A DNA stretch of 64,000 bases from an uncultured Collinsella sp. (GCA_900541245.1 UQIS01000001.1:25495-89494); one strand, 5' to 3'; numbered from the stretch's first letter, positions 5,205-38,523 are shown. Numbers and translations are program-made. The notes: a model not told the origin generated them from the sequence alone.

Positions 5205-5528
5205 CTATATAAGGCTCAAGACGATATAGAGTACGATGCCCGAGACACAGCACCACAGCATCGATTTTGTCTTGACCGCCACGACCACGACGCCGGCGGC
5301 CGCAATCCAGGGAACCAAGGCAGGCCAGAGTCCCGCGTCGAACGCGCCGGGGCTCACCAAGTCGTTGGCGACCAGCGCGGCAAAGGCAGCGGGCGGGATA
5401 TAGCCCAGGGCCTCGGTAATACGGGGCGACAGGGTCCGCCCGCGCAAGGCGAACGCCGGCGCGATGCGAAAGAACGCGATAGCAGCCCACGACGACAGCC
5501 ACAGAACCAAGAACTCGTTAACGGGCAT
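5205..5528 (-). CDS. azlD: branched-chain amino acid exporter small subunit AzlD
   Basis: About 108 aa hydrophobic protein starting at an internal ATG (MPVNEFLVLWL...), overlapping the azlC stop by 11 nt. The ORF-track N-terminal extension overlaps azlC and is implausible. Confidence 0.55.
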   Translation of the reverse strand: MPVNEFLVLWLSSWAAIAFFRIAPAFALRGRTLSPRITEALGYIPPAAFAALVANDLVSPGAFDAGLWPALVPWIAAAGVVVVAVKTKSMLWCCVSGIVLYIVLSLI

Positions 5529-6279
5529 CGCGGGCACCTCTTCCGTCAAATACAGCATCGCACGCCAGCGCAATGGCAATGCCGACCACGACGCTTGCCG
5601 GCACGGCAATATTCGCGAGGCCCAAGAACTTGCATGCGGCGACGGACACCGCGCCCGAAACCGCCGCGACAACGTTACCGCGCGACAGCCGCTGCGAAAA
5701 GAGCAGGCAGATAAAGAGCGAGGTGCAGACAAAGGCTGCAATGGCGGTGGGAACATCGACAACGGCGCCGACGATGGCGCCCATCGTACACGAAACGCCC
5801 CATGTTGCGATGAGGATCACGTTGAGCACAAAGGACTCGCGCGGGCCCCAATCCTCCCCTTCAACCAACTTGGCAAGCGAGATGCCATATGCCTCCTCGG
5901 TAAGTGTCGCGGCAACAGCCAGCGTCTGACGCTTCGAGGCACCCCTCAGATGCGGTGCGATCGATGCCGAGTAAAGCGCAAAACGCGAGGAGATGGCGGC
6001 AACGCTCGCGACGATCGATGCTGCAGGCACACCCGCCAGCCACAGGTTGCAGATCATAAACTGGCCGCTGCCCGTCACAAACGTACTGCTTAGAGCAAAG
6101 ACCATCCAGGGCTCCATTCCCGTCTGCCCCATGATCATTCCGCACGGCGCGCCTATTGCAACATAGGTAAGCATCACTGGCCAGACGGTTCTAACGATTT
6201 TGAGCACCATACGTTTCTCATCCTGACAAGGTCTCCGAGCCGCATGTAGCGACACGGCAGAATCATCATCCGGCAGCAA
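5518..6279 (-). CDS. azlC: branched-chain amino acid exporter AzlC
   Basis: 253 aa polytopic membrane protein with AzlC-like organisation, followed immediately by azlD. Confidence 0.65.
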   Translation of the reverse strand: MLPDDDSAVSLHAARRPCQDEKRMVLKIVRTVWPVMLTYVAIGAPCGMIMGQTGMEPWMVFALSSTFVTGSGQFMICNLWLAGVPAASIVASVAAISSRFALYSASIAPHLRGASKRQTLAVAATLTEEAYGISLAKLVEGEDWGPRESFVLNVILIATWGVSCTMGAIVGAVVDVPTAIAAFVCTSLFICLLFSQRLSRGNVVAAVSGAVSVAACKFLGLANIAVPASVVVGIAIALACDAVFDGRGARDAR

Positions 6280-15245: not shown

Positions 15246-17006
15246 GTGGCCGACCAGGACATCAAGATGCTCATCGAGCGCATTATGGCCGAGGCCCGGA
15301 CCCATCAGTCCGCCCGCTTCTCAAACGAAATCTACGCAGACGAGCCGATTCTCAAAACCGGCCGACAGATGCAGAATTTCCTCCCCGACCAATACCGCAA
15401 GATGCGCGAGATATCGCGCTGGCAGGATGACCCCAAGGGCGGCGCGGGCCGCTGGCTATCGGAGGCCGAGCTTTTCTACCGCCAAGGCTTGCTGATGGCC
15501 GACTTTGAGGACGACTGTCCCTACAACGGCACCTTTAAGTCGTACTTTCCCACCTACAATGCCATGAGCGACCGGCAGTTGCGCGGCTACTTTACCTGGC
15601 GTGCCCAAGTGCGCCGCGGAACCGTCGAGGAAACGTCTACATCCTTTGCCTTTCTGTATCTCTATGAGCTGATTTGCGGCATTGGCATAGATGATCCGCT
15701 CGAAGGTTTTAACAAGATCAAGGCCTTTTGGGATGTCTATCGCGCCTTCGAGCCCGGCATCGACCGGTTTGCGCGCGTGTGGCTGCAGGATTACGCCGTT
15801 TTCCACGGACTCGACCCCAAGCTACTTCGCGACTCTAAAACCGTCATGTTCGATAACGCCCTTATCGAGCTACGCCGCGCAGCGCGAGACCTTGTACCAG
15901 CACCGGCACCGTCCGGCCAGACCCCTAAGCGTCGCAAAACCTCCGAGCCCACGCTCCCCCTTCCGCCCGATGAGGTGCGCGAGGAGCGACTCATGGCCGC
16001 CATCAACGCCCTCTCCACGTACAACCTAAGTAACTCGCGGCTCGACCGCAGCCACCACCGCGATCTGCGCCACGTGGCGTGCGCCGTGTATGTCCGTATG
16101 GCGCGCTACTATGACACGCACCGAAAGACCGACATCGTGGCGAGCTTATTTGGGGAGGAGACGGCCATGCCCTACACCATGTTTGCCTCGGCCGTATTCT
16201 TTTCGCCCGAGCGCCACGAGGACTGCGAATATCGCCTGGACCCCATTCACATCTACCGCTGCCAAAACGGCTTTTGGGAATGCATGCGAATTCACGGCAG
16301 CAGGCAAAAAAGCAGCAAGCTTGGTGAGATGATGCGCGCCTGCGACCAACGCCTACGCCTGGCCCTAGACCCCACCCACCCCCTGAAGGAGGAGAAGGTC
16401 CCCAAATATCTGGCCAAGATCATCGATGACGAGATCATGGCATGGCTTTCGTGGGACGCCGCACACCAGCCCATCAAGATCGATATCGATTTGAGCCAGC
16501 TGGGGCACATTCGGAGCGCCGCCGCGCAAACGCGCGAAGCGCTTTTGATCGATGAGGAACGCGAGGACGACGCATCCGCAGAAGCCGAGGCAGCGGACTC
16601 AGGGCAACCGGAAGCCGAGCCCGTAACCGACGCGATTGTCGAACCGGTCGTGGCACCCATTCGGCAGGACTTGACCGACGAGCCGACCATATCCACCGAA
16701 CAGTTTGGTGTCGTGGCACCGCTTCTCGCGCCGACGCCCGCGTTCGCAGCTGCTGCACCCGCTGACGCCACAAACGAACTCGCGCCCGCCGCAGATGCCT
16801 TCCTTCGCGCACTGCTCGAGCAAAACGCAGCGCAAGCGACATCGGCAGTGGCGCACTCGGGACAGAGCGAGGACATGCTCGTCGATACCATCAACGAGGC
16901 GCTCTTTGACCTGGTGGGCGACACCGTAATTGAATTTAGCGCGGCAGGGCCGCAGATTATCGAGGACTACGAAGCAGACGTGAGAGGATACCTAGACCAT
17001 GAGTGA
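15246..17006 (+). CDS. TerB-like (TerB-N/TerB-C) domain protein; Shango SngA-like
   Basis: GTG start preceded by AGGAGAGGAGGAG. 586 aa with an acidic low-complexity C-terminal third. Function inferred from the conserved three-gene context (ATPase plus Lhr-like helicase directly downstream, ATGA coupled). The TerB-domain assignment is by architecture, not a verified motif. Confidence 0.5.
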   Translation: MADQDIKMLIERIMAEARTHQSARFSNEIYADEPILKTGRQMQNFLPDQYRKMREISRWQDDPKGGAGRWLSEAELFYRQGLLMADFEDDCPYNGTFKSYFPTYNAMSDRQLRGYFTWRAQVRRGTVEETSTSFAFLYLYELICGIGIDDPLEGFNKIKAFWDVYRAFEPGIDRFARVWLQDYAVFHGLDPKLLRDSKTVMFDNALIELRRAARDLVPAPAPSGQTPKRRKTSEPTLPLPPDEVREERLMAAINALSTYNLSNSRLDRSHHRDLRHVACAVYVRMARYYDTHRKTDIVASLFGEETAMPYTMFASAVFFSPERHEDCEYRLDPIHIYRCQNGFWECMRIHGSRQKSSKLGEMMRACDQRLRLALDPTHPLKEEKVPKYLAKIIDDEIMAWLSWDAAHQPIKIDIDLSQLGHIRSAAAQTREALLIDEEREDDASAEAEAADSGQPEAEPVTDAIVEPVVAPIRQDLTDEPTISTEQFGVVAPLLAPTPAFAAAAPADATNELAPAADAFLRALLEQNAAQATSAVAHSGQSEDMLVDTINEALFDLVGDTVIEFSAAGPQIIEDYEADVRGYLDHE

Positions 17007-18303
17007 TACCGCATCCGCAGCACCCCGCGTGCCCAAGCGCGTCGCTGCCGTCATTCTCAACTCGCTCAAGGGCGGCGTGGTCCCGCGCATCGGCCTTCCC
17101 TACATTACCGTAGGGCGCGAGGTCGAGATCCGCGCCCTGCTCACCGATCTGAGTCTCATCGCCGACGGTGGTGCGAGCTTCCGCTTTCTGGTCGGTCGTT
17201 ACGGCGCCGGCAAGAGCTTTTTGCTCCAGACCATCCGCACGCACGCCATGGGTGAGGGATTCGTCGTCGCCGATGCAGACTTATCCCCCGAGCGCCGTCT
17301 GCAGGGCGGGCAGGGGCAGGGCCTTGCCACCTACCGCGAGCTCATACGCAATATATCGACCAAGACGCGCCCCGAGGGCGGTGCGCTCAACCTTATTCTT
17401 GATCGCTGGGTCGCCTCGTACGCCGACGTCGACGAGTCGGTCGTCAATGCCCAACTGGCCCCGCTCGAGGAAATGGTCCACGGCTTCGACTTCACCCGCA
17501 TGCTCCGCCGCTATCGCACGGCCGTATCCGAGGGCGACGAAGAAGCCATGAGCCGCGTGACCAAATGGATCCGCGGCGAATACCGTACCAAGAGCGAGGC
17601 TCGCGCCGAGCTGGGCTCCTCGACCATCATCAGCGATGACGACTGGTACGACTACGTTAAGCTCATCGCGCGTTTTTTGGTCTGCAGCGGCTACAAGGGT
17701 ATGTTGGTGCTCATCGACGAGCTCGTGAATCTGTATAAGATTCCCAACGCGATCACGCGCCAGTACAACTACGAGAAGATCCTGACCATGTACAACGACA
17801 CACTCCAGGGCAAGGCGCAGTACCTGGGCATGATCATGGGCGGCACGCCAACCTCCATCGAAGACCGCCGCCGCGGCGTGTTCTCCTACGAGGCCCTGCG
17901 CAGCCGACTCGCTCAAGGCCGCTTTGCACGCGAGGACCTTAAGGACATGCTCGCGCCCATCATCCGTCTGCAGCCACTCACCTACGAGGAGCTGCTGGTG
18001 CTGATTGAAAAACTCATGCAAATTCACGCCGGCTACTTTGGCTGGACGCCCACGCTTACCGAGAACGACTTGGTGGACTTCCTCAAGATCGAGTTCGGTC
18101 GTGTGGGAGCCGACACACATCTGACGCCGCGTGAAGTCATTCGCGACTTTATCGAGCTGCTCGACATCCTATGCCAGAACCCCGACGCCAACGTAGCCGA
18201 GCTGCTGCAAAGCGTCGGCGGCGACGCGCTGGTGCCGGCAGCAGCAACAGGCGACACCGGCACCGCAGGCGGCGACCGTAACTTCGCCGAATTCACCATC
18301 TAA
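16999..18303 (+). CDS. P-loop NTPase (DUF2791/BrxD-like ATPase); Shango SngB-like
   Basis: Walker A (GRYGAGKSFLL), Walker B (MLVLIDELVN). 434 aa. ATGA start/stop overlap with the upstream gene. Confidence 0.7.
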   Translation: MSDTASAAPRVPKRVAAVILNSLKGGVVPRIGLPYITVGREVEIRALLTDLSLIADGGASFRFLVGRYGAGKSFLLQTIRTHAMGEGFVVADADLSPERRLQGGQGQGLATYRELIRNISTKTRPEGGALNLILDRWVASYADVDESVVNAQLAPLEEMVHGFDFTRMLRRYRTAVSEGDEEAMSRVTKWIRGEYRTKSEARAELGSSTIISDDDWYDYVKLIARFLVCSGYKGMLVLIDELVNLYKIPNAITRQYNYEKILTMYNDTLQGKAQYLGMIMGGTPTSIEDRRRGVFSYEALRSRLAQGRFAREDLKDMLAPIIRLQPLTYEELLVLIEKLMQIHAGYFGWTPTLTENDLVDFLKIEFGRVGADTHLTPREVIRDFIELLDILCQNPDANVAELLQSVGGDALVPAAATGDTGTAGGDRNFAEFTI

Positions 18304-18304
18304 C

Positions 18305-18345
18305 CTGCCAAAAAGGGACAGGTTTATTTTGGCAGGTTTTATCTG
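18305..18345 (+). terminator. hairpin between sngB-like and helicase genes (attenuator or terminator candidate)
   Basis: CCTGCCAAAA / TTTTGGCAGG inverted repeat followed by TTTTATCT. Confidence 0.3.
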
Positions 18346-18377
18346 GGCGAACGTTGAGACTGTAATGCAGCAAGCCG

Positions 18378-20864
18378 TTGCCAGCCGCGTTGAGAGATTC
18401 GTTTTTGAGAGGAGGCCCCGTGAACGCCTTTGACCGCTACGCCCCGTTTATCCAAGACTTCATCTACTCCCACGATTGGGAGAGCCTGCGCTCTATCCAG
18501 GTTGCGGCGGCAGACGCCATCTTTAACACACAAGACAATGTGCTCCTAACGGCATCCACAGCTTCCGGCAAAACCGAAGCGGCCTTCTTTCCCATCCTGA
18601 CCGAGTTTTGGGAGAACCCGCCCGCAAGCGTTGGTGCCCTCTACATTGGCCCCCTCAAGGCACTCATCAATGATCAGTTCGTCCGTCTCAATGACCTGTG
18701 CGAAGAGGCCGATATCCCTGTCTGGCACTGGCATGGCGATGTCTCGCAGTCGCACAAGGCTAAGCTCATCAAAAAACCGAACGGCATCTTGCAGATTACG
18801 CCCGAGTCACTCGAGGCGCTCTTAATCCATAAGCACATGGCGATCCCGCACATGTTTTGCGACCTGCGCTATGTGGTCATCGATGAGGTCCACTCGCTCA
18901 TGCGCGGCGACCGTGGCGGGCAGACGCTCTGCCTTATCGAGCGACTCTCGCGCATGGCCGGCGTGCAACCTCGACGCATTGGCCTTTCGGCCACCATCGG
19001 CGACCCCGAGCGCACGGGTGCCTTTCTCTCACAGGGAACGGGGCGCGACTGCGTTATCCCACGCTTTGAAGAGCCGCGCCGCGTGTGGCGCATCTCCATG
19101 GAGCACTTCTACAACTCGGGCCCCCAGGCACAGCAACGGGGATTCATGGGCACAGGTCCTCAAGAGGCCGAAGTGCTTGCGTGCGAGCGCATCGAGGCGG
19201 CGGCATCCGCGGCACTGCCCGCCGGCGCCCAAGACATGCGTCACAGCGGACAGCTCACACAAGAGGAGCGCCGTCAACGTCGTGAGCGGGCACGGGGCAA
19301 GGCCACTCCCAAGGACCGCCAAACTTCCTCGGCCCCCGAGGGCGAAGTCGACATCCCGCGAGCGACCGAGCAGGCGCTTCTCAGCCCCACCGACACAGCA
19401 CCAGACAACGCCGACCCCGGCATGGGCTATATCTTCGAACACACCCGCGGCCGCAAGTGCCTGGTCTTTGCCAACTCGCGCGAAGAGGCAGAGGCCGTAT
19501 GCTCCATGCTGCGTTGCTACTGTGAGAGCCGGCACGAGCCCGACCGCTTTCTCATCCACCACGGCAATCTTTCGGCATCGCTGCGCGAGACGGCAGAAGA
19601 GCTCATGCGCGACGAGGAACAGGCACAAACGACCGTCACCACCTCTACGCTGGAGCTCGGTATCGATATCGGCCGTCTGGAGCGTGCGTTTCAGATCGAC
19701 GCGCCGTTTACCGTCAGCTCTTTTTTGCAGCGAATGGGCCGCACGGGGCGCCGCGATCTTCCGCCCGAGATGTGGTTCGTCATGCGCGAGGAAGAGCCCG
19801 AGCCGCGCACGATGATGCCCGAGACCATCCCGTGGAAGCTCCTGCAAGGCATCGCGCTCGTACAACTCTATCGCGAGGAAAAGTGGGTCGAGCCGCCTGA
19901 GCTCGATCGACTCCCCTACAGTCTGCTCTATCACCAGACCATGTCGACGCTTGCCAGCACCGGAGAGCTCACGCCGGCCGAACTTGCCCAGCGCGTGCTC
20001 ACGCTCAGCTATTTCCACCGTGTCTCGGCAGACGATTACCGTGTGCTGCTACGCCACCTCATTAAGATCGACCATATCCAGGTCACCGAAGGTGGCGGGC
20101 TCATCGTGGGTCTCGCGGGCGAGCGCATCATTAACAACTTTAAGTTCTACGCCGTATTCCAGGAAAACGAGGAGTTCACCGTTCGCAGCGAGTCGGCCGA
20201 GTTGGGCACGATCGTCAATCCGCCACCGCCCGGCGAGCGCATCGCCATCGCCGGACACTGCTGGATTGTCGAGGAAGTGGACTGGAAGCGACACACCGTC
20301 TTTGCCACGCAAGTCAAAGGTCGTGTGCCGGCATACTTTGGCGACTGCCCCGGTGACATCAATACACACGTACTCGAACGCATGTGCCAAGCGCTCAACG
20401 AGCACGCAGCATATCCGTACCTCATGGGTAACGCACGGGCCCGCTTGGCGCAGGCTCGCCATACGGCCGAGATTTCGGGCGCGGGGACCAAGCCACTCAT
20501 TAACCTGGGCGGCGACACCTGGGTGCTCTTCCCCTGGTTGGGCAGCTACGCCTTTTTGGCACTCGAGCGCATGCTCAAGATTAAATGTGCCGCGGAGCTG
20601 GGCCTTCGCGGACTCGACCCGTCACGCCCGTACTTTATGCAGTTTAAAATGAAGGCCGACGAGGAGACGTTCTTTGAGGTGCTCGCCGCCGAGGCCGAGA
20701 AAGACTTCGATCCCATCGAGCTCGTCTATCCCGGCGAGGTGCCTTATTTTGACCGCTACGACGAGTTTGTTCCCGAAGAGCTCGTGCGCAAAGGCTTCGC
20801 CGAAGGCGTGCTCGACATCGAGGGCATGAAGCAGCGCGTCCTCAGCTGGCGCGACCACGCCTAA
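18378..20864 (+). CDS. Lhr-like DEAD/DEAH (DExH) helicase; Shango SngC-like
   Basis: Motif I (TASTASGKTEAAF), motif II (VVIDEVHSL), motif III (GLSATIGD), helicase-C region and a long C-terminal extension as in Lhr. An alternative GTG start at 18420 has a better RBS (GGAGG). Confidence 0.8.
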   Translation: MPAALRDSFLRGGPVNAFDRYAPFIQDFIYSHDWESLRSIQVAAADAIFNTQDNVLLTASTASGKTEAAFFPILTEFWENPPASVGALYIGPLKALINDQFVRLNDLCEEADIPVWHWHGDVSQSHKAKLIKKPNGILQITPESLEALLIHKHMAIPHMFCDLRYVVIDEVHSLMRGDRGGQTLCLIERLSRMAGVQPRRIGLSATIGDPERTGAFLSQGTGRDCVIPRFEEPRRVWRISMEHFYNSGPQAQQRGFMGTGPQEAEVLACERIEAAASAALPAGAQDMRHSGQLTQEERRQRRERARGKATPKDRQTSSAPEGEVDIPRATEQALLSPTDTAPDNADPGMGYIFEHTRGRKCLVFANSREEAEAVCSMLRCYCESRHEPDRFLIHHGNLSASLRETAEELMRDEEQAQTTVTTSTLELGIDIGRLERAFQIDAPFTVSSFLQRMGRTGRRDLPPEMWFVMREEEPEPRTMMPETIPWKLLQGIALVQLYREEKWVEPPELDRLPYSLLYHQTMSTLASTGELTPAELAQRVLTLSYFHRVSADDYRVLLRHLIKIDHIQVTEGGGLIVGLAGERIINNFKFYAVFQENEEFTVRSESAELGTIVNPPPPGERIAIAGHCWIVEEVDWKRHTVFATQVKGRVPAYFGDCPGDINTHVLERMCQALNEHAAYPYLMGNARARLAQARHTAEISGAGTKPLINLGGDTWVLFPWLGSYAFLALERMLKIKCAAELGLRGLDPSRPYFMQFKMKADEETFFEVLAAEAEKDFDPIELVYPGEVPYFDRYDEFVPEELVRKGFAEGVLDIEGMKQRVLSWRDHA

Positions 20865-30485: not shown

Positions 30486-30509
30486 CCGAACATACTGGAA
30501 CGAAACGAA

Positions 30510-30547
30510 GCGGGGCCGCTGGCAATATAGCCAGCGGCCCCGCTTTT
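30510..30547. terminator. bidirectional terminator between convergent helicase and DUF2130 genes
   Basis: 13-bp perfect stem GCGGGGCCGCTGG / CCAGCGGCCCCGC followed by TTTT. Confidence 0.55.
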
Positions 30548-30564
30548 GCGCGATACGCTATCCC

Positions 30565-32322
30565 CTACTCGGTATCCTCGACCTCATACGAATCCGCCTC
30601 GGCTGGCTCATCGTTTGTCTCTGTCGCAGCCCCGCGCGCCTCGTCAAACGCGGCCTTCATGGTCTTGTTGCCCCACGTGAGCTTGCGAATGGTAAGATCG
30701 TCGGCCTTCTTGTTGGCTAGGCGCAGATTGTTCTCGGAGGACAGCAACGCCTCCTTGGTTTTCTGCAGATGGCTAATCGTCTTGTCGATCTCATCAATCG
30801 CCGTTTGGAACTTGCGGCTCGCGATCTCGTAGTTGCGACCGAAATCATTCTTGAACTTTTCCATCTTGGCTTCGAAGTTCGTGACGTCGATATTCTGCTG
30901 TTTGTACTCCGCCAGTTCCTGCTTATAGCGCAGCGAACCCATGGCGGCGTTGCGAAGAAGCGTGATCATGGGAATAAAGAACTGTGGGCGAATCACGTAC
31001 ATCTTCTCGTAGCGATAGCTCACGTCCACGATGCCGGCGTTGTAAAGCTCGCTCTCGGGCTCGAGCAGCGTGCAGAGCACCGCGTACTCACAGCCTTTCT
31101 GGCGACGATCGTGATCGAGTTTCTTAAAGAAGTCCTCGTTTTTATGCTTGGTCGCGGTCTCGTCGTTCTCGTTTTTCATCTCGAACATAATCGAAATGAC
31201 CTCGTTGCCGCTTGCGTCGCACTCGCGGAAGATAAAGTCGCCCTTGGTACCCTCGGACGCATCGTTATCTTTCTCGAAGTACGCGTTAGGAAACGCCGTC
31301 ATGCGCAGGCGATTGAACTCGGTCTCGCAGTGCTGCTCGAGTGACTCGCCCACCATCTTGGTGGACAGGCGGACCTTCATGTCCTTAAGGCGCTCAATCT
31401 CTTCATCCTTGTAGCGAATCAGGTCATCGCTCGCGCGCTTGGCCTGCGCGAGCTCGAGCTCATGCGCCGCCTTGGCCTGTTCCTCGCGAGAATCGCGCAC
31501 CGCCAGCTCACTCGTCAGCTTGGCACGTGCCTCATCGCGCTCTCGCTCCGCCGCGGCGACCGCCTCTGACAGGTTCATTTTTGCCATCAGTTCCTGCTCG
31601 CGCAGCTGGGCACGCAGACCCTCGGCCTCTTGCTCAGATTGTGCCTTTGCGACGGAAAACTTCTCCTGTACCGTCGCGCGGTAGTCAGCAAGCACGCGCT
31701 CGGCCTCGCTGCGAGCGGCATCGAGCTCACGCTGCGACTCTGCCGCGGCAGCGGCAAGCGCCATCTCCTGGGCCTTGTCAGCCGCGGCAAGCCTGGCCTG
31801 CAGCTCGGCAATCTGAGCATCACGTGCAGCTAAATCGTTTTGAGCAGCGTTGCGCGCCGCCGACTCGGCAAGCTTGGCTTCGTCATCTTTGCATCCCAGC
31901 TGCGCACGCAAATTGTCGATCTCGCGCTGAAGCTCAGCATTCTCCTTCTGAGCATCGGCACGGGCCTCAACCGCCGCACGCTGACTTGCGCTCTCGCGCT
32001 CTGCGGCAGCGCCCTCGAGCTTGGCGCGCAACTCGGCAAGCTCGGCATCGCGCTTGGCGACCTCTTGTGCCAGCTGCTGAGCTGCAGCGTTCTTCTGCTC
32101 GACAAGCTGAGCGTTGCGCTGAGACTCTGCCTTTTGCAAGGCAGCCGTCGAACGCGAGCGCTCAAGCTCCAGCGCCTGCTCGCCCTCGCGCTGGACCGCC
32201 TTCACACGCTCGTCCAGGTCGCGCGAAAACTCGGCATCGCGTACTTGCTTGACGATATCCGCATAGCCGGACGCATCGACCTTAAAAACTTCGCCGCAAT
32301 GCGGGCACTTAATCTCGTTCAT
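30565..32322 (-). CDS. DUF2130-family protein: N-terminal Zn-ribbon, long coiled coil, C-terminal putative PD-(D/E)xK nuclease-like domain
   Basis: [16 protein letters not shown] zinc ribbon. About 300 aa of Ala/Glu/Arg/Gln-rich heptad-like sequence. C-terminal GESLEQ...KGDFIFRE...[10 protein letters not shown], which fits an E-D-ExK pattern. Confidence 0.6.
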
Positions 32323-32380
32323 AGCAGCTCCTCGATGGACGCAAATTTCGACCGCCTACACTCTACCGCGCCGCACGGAC

Positions 32381-32462
32381 AAAAAAGGCGCCGCTGCCAT
32401 AATGGCAACGGCGCCAGAGCCACCACAAAGGTGCCTGTCCCCTTTGTGGTGGCTCTGGCGCC
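32381..32462 (-). terminator. tandem hairpins (22-bp perfect stem plus a short stem with T-tract) between phosphoesterase and DUF2130 genes
   Basis: GGCGCCAGAGCCACCACAAAGG / CCTTTGTGGTGGCTCTGGCGCC. Then GGCGCCG...CGGCGCC followed on the minus strand by TTTTTTG. Confidence 0.5.
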
Positions 32463-33008
32463 CTATAACCCAAAGAAGCTAAGAATCTGATCACGGCTTA
32501 CGGGCTTGTACTCGTTGGCATCGAGACCGACATCGTAGCGAAAGATAGGGCGCTCGCGATCGCGGTTGCGCACGTTGGTGCGGTCTCCCCTGCTGTGGAT
32601 ATGCCCGTGCAGCATGACGGCGCCACGCGCCTTGCCGTTCCAGCTGAGCATGGGGTAATGGCTCAACACCAGGCGATGGCCCTTGGCATAGCCGGGAGCA
32701 ATCTCCAGGTAATCGCGCACGTCTTCCCAAATCTGCGGTACGTCGGGATCTTCCCAGTCGCCGTCATGGTTACCACGGATGAGCGTCACGTTCTGACATT
32801 CGATACGCTCGCGCAGACGCACCGCCTCCGCCAGGGGCAAACGATAGGTAAAGTCTCCCAAGATATAGAGACGGTCGTCCGCCGCCACGCACTCATTGAC
32901 GGCATCGATGACCTTGCGGTTCATCTCCTCGACCGAATCAAACGGCCGATCCATATCGTGCAAGATATTCGTATCGCCCAGGTGCAGGTCGGCGGTAAAC
33001 CACATCAT
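32463..33008 (-). CDS. calcineurin-like metallophosphoesterase (YfcE/MJ0936-type)
   Basis: Motifs DLHLGD, ILGDF, RGNHD, HGHIH. 181 aa. Confidence 0.75.
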   Translation of the reverse strand: MMWFTADLHLGDTNILHDMDRPFDSVEEMNRKVIDAVNECVAADDRLYILGDFTYRLPLAEAVRLRERIECQNVTLIRGNHDGDWEDPDVPQIWEDVRDYLEIAPGYAKGHRLVLSHYPMLSWNGKARGAVMLHGHIHSRGDRTNVRNRDRERPIFRYDVGLDANEYKPVSRDQILSFFGL

Positions 33009-33074
33009 CGTCTATGTCCTCATTTCGCAACGCGTCAAACTCGTGCTAAGTATACAGACACAGCGATACGGCGG

Positions 33075-33254
33075 TTAGCCAAAGAGCCCGCCGAACGGGC
33101 CGCGACTGCGTTTGCCTTGCTTTTTCGAAGCGTTACCCTGAGTTTTCTTGTCCCGCCGTTTCTTACGGTCCTGTTCCAGATCATCGTCGTCGAGCAGCAG
33201 ATCCCACTCAAACGGATCATCCGTTAAATCGAACAGGTCATCGTCGTCAAACAT
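33075..33254 (-). CDS. small (59 aa) acidic-then-basic hypothetical protein
   Basis: AAGGGAAG RBS 5 nt upstream of the ATG. Sequence MFDDDDLFDLTDDPFEWDLLLDDDDLEQDRKKRRDKKTQGNASKKQGKRSRGPFGGLFG. Lies between the HIRAN and phosphoesterase genes. Below the ORF-track length cut-off. Confidence 0.3.
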   Translation of the reverse strand: MFDDDDLFDLTDDPFEWDLLLDDDDLEQDRKKRRDKKTQGNASKKQGKRSRGPFGGLFG

Positions 33255-33272
33255 GGCAGCTTCCCTTACCGA

Positions 33273-33599
33273 CTAGCGAGCATCCACCACATAGAGCCCA
33301 ACGCGCACCTGATGCCACGGGCTGCGCTCGGGGGCAACCTGTTGCACACGGGCCTCAAATACGTCCTCGTGGCCGTAATACATCATCAAGGACAGTGGGC
33401 CGACCTCGTTTCCCGGAACGTAGCCAAGTTTGGTCTTGCCATAGTAGATAGCAACTGCCTCGGGGTCATGGGGATTATCGCGCTCGGCACACAGCGTCAG
33501 TTTATCGCCCGCTTTAAGATCGCCTAGGACCAAAGCGCCATCGGCATACTGAAATCCTGCAATGTGAAATGACAGAAGAACACGTGAAGGCTCGTACAT
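33273..33599 (-). CDS. standalone HIRAN-domain protein
   Basis: HIAGFQYADG...GDKLTLCAERDNPHDPEAVAIYYGKTKLGYVP...PLSLMM matches the HIRAN core pattern (GxxY...L.RE.xNxxDxNA..V......lGYv). 108 aa. Confidence 0.65.
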   Translation of the reverse strand: MYEPSRVLLSFHIAGFQYADGALVLGDLKAGDKLTLCAERDNPHDPEAVAIYYGKTKLGYVPGNEVGPLSLMMYYGHEDVFEARVQQVAPERSPWHQVRVGLYVVDAR

Positions 33600-33721
33600 A
33601 GCAACTCCCCTAACGGCCGGATAAACCGGCGCTTAACCTTATTGAGAAGTCTACGAACTCGTGCGGACACAAATTCATCCCGCCTGTGCCTTTCGACCGT
33701 TTGTCGCTACGCCATCTGATT

Positions 33722-37278: not shown

Positions 37279-37401
37279 CTAAGTGAGTAGACTTTTTGGA
37301 ACTTGCCGAGCAGACCATCCATATCACTTTATAAAGCCGCAGGTAAATGCCTTGTTGCAAAACGACCTAGTCGCCAAAGTGCCAAAAGTCTACTCACTTA
37401 G
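37279..37401. mobile_element. MITE-like element copy 2
   Basis: TIRs CTAAGTGAGTAGACTTTTT (37279-37297) and AAAAGTCTACTCACTTAG (37384-37401). The interior is about 85% similar to copy 3. Confidence 0.6.
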
Positions 37402-38523
37402 ATTCGCAGCCGTCCACGATCGAGCCATTTTGTGTCTAACGGGCATCTTTCCGTCGATTACTCCCAATTTTGTCCAGTCAACGAATAGTTCAGACCTGAG
37501 TAATGTCTCAGCCCTTTGCTCATCTGAGCTTTTATCACGATATTCAGCATCGAGCATCCTGCATACGGCCTTAACGATCGCGCGGAATCTATCCTCATCC
37601 GATATCTGTCTGTGTGTCAGGAGAAGCACATCGTAGCCCATGGCCTGAAGGGCCGTCATGCGGTCAGCGTCACGCAAGCCATCCCCTGCGCGTCCGTGCG
37701 AGGCCTTTCCCTGACATTCAATGGCCACCTGTCGCCTGCCGTCCGGCGAAGACAGAAGTATGTCGATATATACACGGGACTTTCCCACAATCGCTCGAGC
37801 ACTTGTGCTTAGCATCACTTCAACATTAAGCTCTATGTCGCAAAAACCTTCGCCTCCCAGGGATCGCGGCAGTGCAAGTAGCAAATACGCCTCGACCTCA
37901 AAAGGCGACGCGGCACCCAATGGAACGAGTTGCGACACCGTCCTAAATCTATTGCCGTAACGTATCCCGCAAACATCTGAACAAAAACGGTCAAGGTCTC
38001 CGCCCAAAACCAAAGCGTCTCGACGCCATAAATTTGAGGCGGTGCCGTCCTCGGACGGGCAGCGCACCCAACCGAACGTTGTCGAGATCGCGCCCGAATC
38101 AATTGCACGCGAAAGCTCCGCCTCAAGTGCCGCAGGCAGAGCGCACACCGCAAACAAGCCACACATCTCCGCCAATACCAAAAGAAGCTGAAGATCCGTC
38201 AGATGCCGCGACATGATGAATACCGTCAGTAGAGGAGACGTAATCAAAAACCCATGCTCCGTTTCCAGTACGGATTCCCCGGGAAGCTCACCAAGAAACA
38301 GCCGCTGCCTAATGCTGGCAGGACAAGTCCGTTTGTTTCTCGTCTGAACCAATGTATACAACGGAAAACCGAGCGCGACCGCAGCCGTCGGGTTGCGGGC
38401 GAGATCATATCGCTGCCGGTCTTCTTCCGGTCGTGGAAGCGGCGGACACAGAGCGCGGACCTGAGGGGGCAAACGCCAGTACCTAAAAGCCGATATGTCA
38501 CAAAGTAGATCTTTCATAGGCAC
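37390..38523 (-). CDS. hypothetical protein with C-terminal DUF559 (Vsr/restriction-endonuclease-like) domain
   Basis: C-terminal VYIDILLSSPDGRRQVAIECQGKASHGRAGDGLRDADRMTALQAMGYDVLLLTHRQI. Visibly lower GC than its neighbours. The last three codons and stop lie inside the MITE TIR. Confidence 0.5.
   Translation of the reverse strand: MPMKDLLCDISAFRYWRLPPQVRALCPPLPRPEEDRQRYDLARNPTAAVALGFPLYTLVQTRNKRTCPASIRQRLFLGELPGESVLETEHGFLITSPLLTVFIMSRHLTDLQLLLVLAEMCGLFAVCALPAALEAELSRAIDSGAISTTFGWVRCPSEDGTASNLWRRDALVLGGDLDRFCSDVCGIRYGNRFRTVSQLVPLGAASPFEVEAYLLLALPRSLGGEGFCDIELNVEVMLSTSARAIVGKSRVYIDILLSSPDGRRQVAIECQGKASHGRAGDGLRDADRMTALQAMGYDVLLLTHRQISDEDRFRAIVKAVCRMLDAEYRDKSSDEQRAETLLRSELFVDWTKLGVIDGKMPVRHKMARSWTAANLSE

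Follow-up and report, generated by a model that had tools for sequence, protein, structure and literature searches.

A conserved PafBC-type promoter element shared by HIRAN and DUF2130 genes in Collinsella points to a probable stress-inducible regulon

A 64-kb chromosomal segment of Collinsella (family Coriobacteriaceae; G+C ~0.60), which we refer to as the window, carries four open reading frames (ORFs) in succession on its minus strand: a HIRAN-domain protein, a micro-protein, a metallophosphoesterase (MPE), and a DUF2130 protein. All four are present at the positions given in an earlier interpretation of this DNA made without database searches (the sequence-only reading). The HIRAN and DUF2130 genes are preceded by a common promoter element, and their co-regulation, which is well supported by sequence comparison, is our strongest conclusion. 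We propose, with moderate confidence, that the locus comprises two adjacent, separately transcribed units belonging to a single regulon that responds to stress and serves DNA-end handling or defence, most likely driven by a PafBC-like WYL activator. Induction by damage, the identity of the regulator, and physical or functional cooperation of the proteins are what we infer by analogy with characterised systems. The features of the locus are as follows.

33599..33273, minus strand: HIRAN, 108 aa (PF08797, E 1.9e-12, 47.3 bits against a gathering threshold of 24.7)
33254..33075, minus strand: micro-protein, 59 aa, without a family match
33008..32463, minus strand: MPE, 181 aa (PF00149, E 9.5e-9, 36.4 bits against 21.5)
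32322..30565, minus strand: DUF2130, 585 aa (PF09903, E 1.3e-91, 306.9 bits against 26.7, residues 294-549)
33648..33669, minus strand: HIRAN promoter element, TGTCCG-CACGAGTTCG-TAGACT, ending 48 nt upstream of the HIRAN ATG
32360..32381, minus strand: DUF2130 promoter element, TGTCCG-TGCGGCGCGG-TAGAGT, ending 37 nt upstream of the DUF2130 ATG, directly after the terminator T-run
32387..32464, minus strand: double-hairpin intrinsic terminator of the HIRAN/micro-protein/MPE unit (terminator scan and fold)
30508..30545, minus strand: terminator after DUF2130 (terminator scan), with a 16-bp stem, also facing a convergent DUF3516 helicase gene

The three domain assignments of the sequence-only reading (HIRAN, Metallophos, and DUF2130) all exceeded their Pfam thresholds, and the HIRAN protein is indeed a standalone domain. 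The strong double hairpin described between MPE and DUF2130 was likewise recovered, both by the terminator scan and by its fold energy (-64.1 kcal/mol, z -8.98), and is followed by a T-run.

The element common to the HIRAN and DUF2130 promoters, TGTCCG-N10-TAnnnT, was found by reading the upstream regions. It consists of a -26-type TGTCCG and a -10 hexamer, without a -35 box; because the 10-nt gap is too short, it is not a -35/-10 promoter. The window holds three matches where 0.25 would be expected, a number that was not attained in any of 100 shuffles. Two of these are intergenic, namely the sites upstream of HIRAN and DUF2130, with no other intergenic site among the ~50 window genes; the third is intragenic (16091-16112), in the first gene of a TerB/BrxD-like/helicase unit, and may be a chance match. 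Comparison across lineages (loci are designated by L numbers) revealed that 10 of 11 lineages retain the element upstream of HIRAN, within flanks that have diverged until they are unalignable, and that it also stands before DUF2130 in all 8 lineage types examined (among them L085, L092, L094, L104, L105 with TGTCTG, and L106; degenerate in L088). A footprint of 17 sites from 9 lineages upstream of HIRAN or DUF2130, plus one in L238, retained GTC in 16 of the 17, with the -10 hexamer ending 35-96 nt upstream of the start codons.

This arrangement is that of promoters read by PafBC. The PafBC motif is tGTCgg(N10)tA(N3)T, with a strictly conserved GTC triplet; in mycobacteria, PafB reads the -26 element and PafC contacts sigma region 4 (PMC8635444). 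The pathway is activated by single-stranded DNA (ssDNA), upon which an HTH-WYL-WCX activator bridges the -26 element to the housekeeping sigma factor, a mode termed 'sigma adaptation'. The RecA-NDp promoter has been reported across Actinobacteria (PMC8223512). The Collinsella element resembles the PafBC/RecA-NDp promoters in its 22-nt geometry, its conserved GTC, and its missing -35 box.

We then compared the gene order around the locus. In 80 Collinsella species representatives the order is fixed: Rbr, Fe-ADH, Aldedh, HIRAN, micro-protein, MPE, DUF2130, helicase, TrmB. Word-indexed searches with HIRAN, MPE, and DUF2130 gave only Collinsella among the best 120 matches, and more distant contexts were obtained from individual look-ups and a plasmid collection. 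The other arrangements were as follows.

L092, L105: MPE, HIRAN, DUF2130
L106: HIRAN, GNAT, DUF2130
L104 (C. intestinalis): HIRAN, peptidase C69, ParE/Phd, GNAT, DUF2130
L088: HIRAN, peptidase C69, Fic, DUF2130
L094: MPE, MFS, DUF2130, without HIRAN
L001 (Enorma), L086, L238: HIRAN without MPE or DUF2130
L090: MPE alone amid housekeeping genes

HIRAN and DUF2130 thus lie on the same strand, within ~4 kb of each other, in five differently arranged Collinsella lineage types, and a functional link between them seems likely. The recurrent conserved pair, by gene order, is HIRAN then DUF2130, despite changed intervening and flanking genes; of the four-gene neighbourhood described in the sequence-only reading, this pairing is what persisted, and MPE and the micro-protein were not kept with it. 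Two strains (L008 8030-11700 and L031 9131-12814) carry a 3.7-kb cassette between MPE and DUF2130, encoding a BglG-like antiterminator, PTS EIIBC, and a YdjC-like protein, and here too DUF2130 retains its own motif promoter. The HIRAN locus borders variable islands with GmrSD, MutH-Dcm, HNH, ParE/Phd, Fic, DUF6788/NTP_transf_8, PLD-helicase, and toxin-antitoxin pairs.

Which other genes carry the element was addressed by a metagenome scan with a strict form, TTTGTCCGCACGG-N4-GTAnnnT, which returned 95 loci, ~60 of the sites standing before HIRAN or DUF2130. Only matches in Collinsella-like contigs at promoter positions were counted as evidence; three of the ~31 other independent loci are gut contigs of Collinsella-like composition with the element at a promoter position. 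These three, and a fourth locus from a scan of viral contigs, are the following.

First gene of a three-gene pPIWI-RE island, 47 nt downstream of the element, on a Collinsella-like contig
612-aa ResIII helicase (best NCBIfam match RadD), 48 nt downstream of the element, on a Collinsella-like contig
Cas9, 163 nt downstream of the element's -10, on a Collinsella-like contig
DinD (DNA damage-inducible protein D) equivalog, 58 nt downstream of the element, on a Collinsella-like contig from the viral scan (NF008573, 2.1e-96, 322.7 bits; cutoff 242)

One NCBI assembly (QZMC01) contains the HIRAN-DUF2130, Cas9, and helicase contigs. A second motif scan of viral contigs returned nothing relevant.

A candidate regulator was found near HIRAN in one lineage. 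In L236 (273-2101) and L237 (151-1978), a HIRAN orthologue (65% identity) overlaps an orphan 158-aa gene in an operon, followed by a convergent HTH-WYL-WCX regulator gene, two genes from HIRAN, whose sole sequence match in the PDB is PafBC (6SJ9). The HIRAN promoter of this lineage carries a perfect palindrome, GTGTCCC-ATGCGA-GGGACAC, in place of the bipartite element. The arrangement differs from that of PafBC, where a PafB/PafC pair stands beside the Pup-proteasome locus: the L236 regulator is a single gene with a palindromic site. As a putative regulon, the Collinsella-like genes would resemble that of PafBC in comprising a damage-inducible gene (dinD), helicases, and nucleases, with a candidate HTH-WYL-WCX regulator near HIRAN in L236/L237, and differ from it in including Cas9 and a pPIWI-RE island and in the host being a member of Coriobacteriia. 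No description of PafBC in Coriobacteriia was found in the literature searched.

Several minor observations concern the element and its surroundings. The length of the gap from the Aldedh stop codon to the start of HIRAN (window 33600-33721; L005-L084) defines two strain classes, ~126 nt as in the window or ~428 nt, which differ by a ~300-nt indel just upstream of the HIRAN promoter. In L104, a near-duplicate of the DUF2130 promoter element (5490-5511) adjoins the ParE/Phd and GNAT insertion, which may have duplicated or interrupted the promoter region. Enorma phocaeensis (L001, 331-352) has a variant site, TGTCCTCACGCCATGGTACAGT, shortly before a 70-aa ORF that is flanked by rubrerythrin and peptide deformylase genes and may be another small regulon member. 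The Cas9 leader (L161, 1313-1500) holds hairpins and a T-run within the 163 nt after the -10, so that in place of a plain 5' untranslated region it may be the gene of a small RNA, for instance a tracrRNA. Seven soil contigs (L116, L135, L141, L153, L158, L174, L201) share an identical site, TTTGTCCGCACGGTCTGGTAGATT, in a conserved stretch with no obvious downstream ORF, which may be a mobile or repeated element. Upstream of the MPE-HIRAN-DUF2130 genes in L092 (1-5889) and L093 stands a four-gene unit resembling another defence system, with an uncharacterised 422-aa protein, a DEAD helicase, a 57-aa ORF, and an SMC_N/AAA_23 ATPase; an ORF with an acidic tail comes next.

The HIRAN protein is 99-100% identical across the 80 Collinsella species representatives; a genome-collection scan with the HIRAN alignment returned 80 loci, all near-identical Collinsella, which served the selection analysis of the micro-protein below and added no diversity. 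Among 25 HIRAN family members, N42, P43, and G15 are invariant and D45 nearly so. The family profile aligns with the HIRAN domain of HLTF at the GxxY and NPYD (NNPYD of HLTF) segments, the window protein reading NPHD, and matches the bacterial protein lp_0118 (PDB 3K2Y) at 6e-6. In HLTF structures, the pocket for the 3' end is lined by these two segments, and knowledge of the domain predicts that the window protein would bind 3'-OH DNA ends. It shares this domain with HLTF/Rad5 and lp_0118, and differs in having no fused helicase or ubiquitin-ligase module, being 108 aa alone. It is also distinct from the HipA-associated HIRAN proteins (HipI), which are predicted antitoxins, the HIRAN-HipA clusters being assigned a predicted role in defence (PMC11706625). 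A match was found to the C-terminal (HIRAN) part of the PADLOC candidate PDC-M03B models. In a phage collection, HIRAN matches were weak, with no annotated MPE neighbour in the one phage examined.

From N- to C-terminus, the DUF2130 protein comprises a CPxC knuckle, a coiled coil, the PD-(D/E)xK core, and a further helical region. The N-terminal Zn-ribbon claimed for it proved to be a single conserved CPxC knuckle (C6, C9): the cysteine motif exists, with no second Cys/His pair nearby. The claimed ~300 aa of coiled coil appeared in a full-length model as helices 17-144 and 166-320, with a break at 145-165, and the E...D...EMK residues correspond to E329/E333, D362, and E381-M-K383, which are invariant in 11 sequences from Actinomycetota, Pseudomonadota, and Bacillota. 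Structure prediction (AlphaFold2, residues 318-480, pLDDT 68) gave the alpha-beta-beta-beta-alpha-beta order of PD-(D/E)xK folds; the structural models are of moderate confidence. DUF2130 is already listed as PD-(D/E)xK in row 109 of the table of Steczkiewicz et al. 2012 (PMC3424549), so the assignment is not new, and was rechecked independently here. From conservation and modelling, DUF2130 is predicted to be a coiled-coil PD-(D/E)xK nuclease with an intact D...ExK site. As modelled, the coiled coil is antiparallel and would return the N-terminus to the nuclease core. Exactly four cysteines are invariant across phyla, CPxC (6, 9) together with C332 and C411 in the nuclease core; since the antiparallel coiled coil would bring them together, they could form an inter-domain metal site.

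Pfam gave DUF2130 no SMC_N, AAA_23, or ABC match and thus no ATPase head, and the sole NCBIfam match was a 14.8-bit coiled-coil hit to TrlF (cutoff 350). RmuC has a comparable layout, with an extended coiled coil at the N-terminus and then a nuclease core of the restriction-endonuclease type; DUF2130 differs in the CPxC knuckle and a second helical region after the core. Sequence kinship with RmuC was rejected, the Pfam model giving no match to DUF2130 even at E up to 10, and architectural analogy alone remains. DUF2130 is very widespread (>8000 proteins from one word-indexed search) and ~60% identical over knuckle and core from Actinomycetota to Pseudomonadota; it was absent from the phage collection, and among the papers found to mention it none assigns a function. 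The copies on plasmids of Bradyrhizobium, Ralstonia, Lactococcus, Arthrobacter, Enterobacter, and Paraburkholderia are solitary genes, often amid restriction, defence, or insertion sequence genes. Its plasmid neighbours include type I and FokI-like restriction-modification systems, an ABC-three-component system, an OLD-like endonuclease, and a DUF4297/DUF87 pair; HIRAN or MPE never stood beside it on the plasmids examined. A search for SOS boxes upstream found none in the Arthrobacter, Lactococcus, Ralstonia, Enterobacter, Paraburkholderia, and Mitsuaria copies. The Bradyrhizobium plasmid (L098, ~5910-5925) has GTTC-N7-GTTC, the alphaproteobacterial LexA-box pattern, 74 nt upstream of DUF2130, whereas seven other plasmid copies have no comparable box; these results do not support a general control of DUF2130 by damage.

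The MPE is a calcineurin-like metallophosphoesterase, as had been claimed: the PF00149 match is accompanied by the metal motifs DLHLGD, GDF, GNHD, and HGH in the translation. It matches the phage phosphoesterase family phrog_547 at 6e-40, a family that in turn matches 1258 phage records, and its closest solved relative is the uncharacterised aq_1665 (PDB 1XM7; 9.4e-11). It resembles aq_1665 and phrog_547 in its small size, its single domain, and a complete set of motifs for a binuclear metal site, in a family without a known substrate. The match to the MPE/PdeM nuclease 6NVO reached just 0.022, and the scores fell far under the equivalog cutoffs of TIGR00024 (SbcD-related; 25.4 bits against 115.2) and TIGR04123 (PdeM; 24.3 against 150). 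The PdeM/MPE of the Lhr-ligase damage-response operon (6NVO) is accordingly a distant relative, the window protein falling outside the PdeM equivalog by score. Its position varies between lineages, being upstream of HIRAN in L092 and L105, absent from L088, L104, and L106, and alone in L090. On this comparative evidence, MPE is an optional, mobile, recruited phage-type phosphoesterase and not a core partner of HIRAN-DUF2130.

The micro-protein begins after an 18-nt gap with its own ribosome-binding site, as the sequence-only reading had noted, a Shine-Dalgarno-like GGGAAG standing 5 nt before the ATG. Its acidic and basic halves were also evident (14 D/E in residues 1-29, 11 K/R in the last 30). 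Judged from codon-level comparison, it is a genuine gene under purifying selection, because 80 of 81 Collinsella loci preserve the frame and pN/pS is 0.19 (0.11 in the N-terminal half, 0.30 in the C-terminal half) against 1.5-1.9 in the two other frames. Searches of Pfam, PADLOC, NCBIfam, and the phage families (phrog) gave no match, and a set of 1.84 billion representative proteins yielded just 20 relatives, each of them at least 61% identical. The small ORF is thus conserved at orthologous loci within the C. aerofaciens clade and absent from lineages outside it, and therefore cannot be a core part of the system; a role as conserved core component was rejected. Its DDDLF and DDPF segments may resemble the C-terminal tips of SSB.

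Under the mechanism we propose, ssDNA arising from DNA damage or invading DNA would trigger a PafBC-like WYL regulator, which would switch on HIRAN, DUF2130, and other nucleic-acid enzymes. Unit 1 would consist of HIRAN, joined in the C. aerofaciens clade by the clade-specific micro-protein and the recruited phage-type MPE, and unit 2 of DUF2130. HIRAN would bind free 3'-OH DNA ends, and the predicted DUF2130 nuclease would cut a DNA structure or foreign DNA, with MPE and the micro-protein as optional clade-specific accessories that might clean blocked ends or modulate the system. The theme of DNA-end processing or defence, suggested in the sequence-only reading, fits the other motif-bearing genes (dinD, the RadD-like helicase, Cas9, and pPIWI-RE). 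As to purpose, dinD and the RadD-like helicase would point to damage, and the Cas9, pPIWI-RE, and plasmid DUF2130 contexts to defence. A bolder version, in which Coriobacteriia have a PafBC-like ssDNA-triggered activator joining damage genes (dinD, the RadD-like helicase) with defence systems (CRISPR-Cas9, the Argonaute-type pPIWI-RE island), and HIRAN (marking 3' ends) and DUF2130 (the nuclease acting there) form an unrecognised two-component system, is speculative and in our estimate rather unlikely.

A number of points weigh against this proposal. The ~31 other independent metagenome loci are about as many as a rough estimate of the chance number, and the Collinsella element has C at position 5, where the PafBC motif has a weakly conserved g. 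No HTH-WYL-WCX regulator gene lies within the 64-kb window, the part of this strain's genome covered, and the damage-related genes so far linked to the element are confined to dinD and the RadD-like helicase gene. HIRAN occurs without DUF2130 in four lineage types, and DUF2130 without HIRAN in L094 and on every plasmid examined. The linkage evidence comes entirely from one family, Coriobacteriaceae, and shared ancestry explains part of it. Finally, several motif-bearing loci are themselves defence systems (Cas9, pPIWI-RE), and plasmid DUF2130 lies amid defence genes, so that the purpose of the regulon could be defence.

This last point leads to the alternative that survives best, an inducible anti-phage or anti-plasmid module in which HIRAN senses foreign free 3' ends, DUF2130 is the effector nuclease, and the promoter belongs to a defence regulon; it overlaps our proposal on regulation and differs on biological purpose. 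We regard it as possible, although clearly less probable than the broader reading. The element before Cas9 and the pPIWI-RE island speaks for it, as do the GmrSD, MutH-Dcm, HNH, and toxin-antitoxin genes of the islands bordering the HIRAN locus, the restriction-modification and other defence genes adjoining plasmid DUF2130, the partial match of HIRAN to PDC-M03B, and the predicted defensive role of HIRAN-HipA clusters (PMC11706625). However, the four proteins matched no full PADLOC-DB 2.0 system model, with DUF2130, MPE, and the micro-protein giving no PADLOC match at all, and the near-identity and fixed position of HIRAN in 80 species representatives fit a core gene and not a mobile defence gene. 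The element also precedes dinD, a DNA-damage gene, and absence from the phage collection together with ~60% identity across phyla would be unusual for an arms-race effector.

It is improbable that HIRAN, MPE, and DUF2130 have no functional link, being unrelated genes kept together by descent in one genus, with the motif either a promoter variant typical of the lineage or a site for some regulator outside DNA metabolism. This would suit the single-family origin of the linkage evidence, the lineages in which HIRAN and DUF2130 each stand alone, and the solitary DUF2130 genes outside Coriobacteriaceae. Yet the motif is rare, with two intergenic sites in 64 kb, and is retained at both genes through rearrangements and insertions; all other motif-bearing genes found encode nucleic-acid enzymes or DinD, and a PafBC-like regulator neighbours HIRAN in one lineage.

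Least probable is the split SbcCD/Mre11-Rad50-like machine put forward in the sequence-only reading (MPE as Mre11-like, DUF2130 as Rad50-like partner, HIRAN as end binder). In its favour, the four genes are adjacent and co-oriented in the window, MPE is weakly similar to the SbcD-related and PdeM models and 6NVO, and DUF2130 combines an extended coiled coil with a CxxC motif. Comparative genomics has largely refuted this model: MPE is a member of a phage phosphoesterase family and scores 25 and 24 bits where the SbcD-related and PdeM models require 115 and 150, an ATPase domain is missing from DUF2130, and the pair can do without MPE, whose position differs from lineage to lineage; a terminator and DUF2130's own promoter, and in two strains the PTS cassette, stand between MPE and DUF2130, which elsewhere has no MPE neighbour; CPxC lies at the N-terminus (residues 6-9) and not at the coiled-coil apex (145-165 in the model); and the superficially similar parts list (phosphoesterase, coiled coil, CxxC) comes without an ATPase head, Mre11-type nuclease, or apical zinc hook.

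For the preferred reading, a stress-inducible regulon of two units, the shared conserved PafBC-type promoter offers a first testable regulatory context for DUF2130 and for bacterial standalone HIRAN proteins, which are as little studied as DUF2130. It suggests that damage control by sigma adaptation extends to Coriobacteriia, and points to the HIRAN-DUF2130 regulon as an undescribed stress-induced repair or defence gene set. If it is true that Cas9 and the pPIWI-RE island use the element, DNA-damage sensing would be tied to the induction of immune systems in an abundant human gut genus.

The genes flanking the locus are ordinary (aldehyde and alcohol dehydrogenases, rubrerythrin, a DUF3516 helicase, and a TrmB-like methyltransferase), and an Rfam search of the locus gave nothing relevant. 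The remaining window genes serve metabolism and transport, apart from one TerB/BrxD-like/helicase triad. This three-gene defence-like unit (15246-20864, plus strand) encodes a TerB_N/TerB_C protein, a BrxC/D-like ATPase (PF10923, 2.7e-149), and a DEAD helicase; a near-identical copy of the intragenic element in its TerB gene is kept in L129 at 10494. A 377-aa protein at 37390-38523 (minus strand) has a weak MTES_1575 restriction-endonuclease-like domain (6e-6, below cutoff) and occupies the same position in L085.

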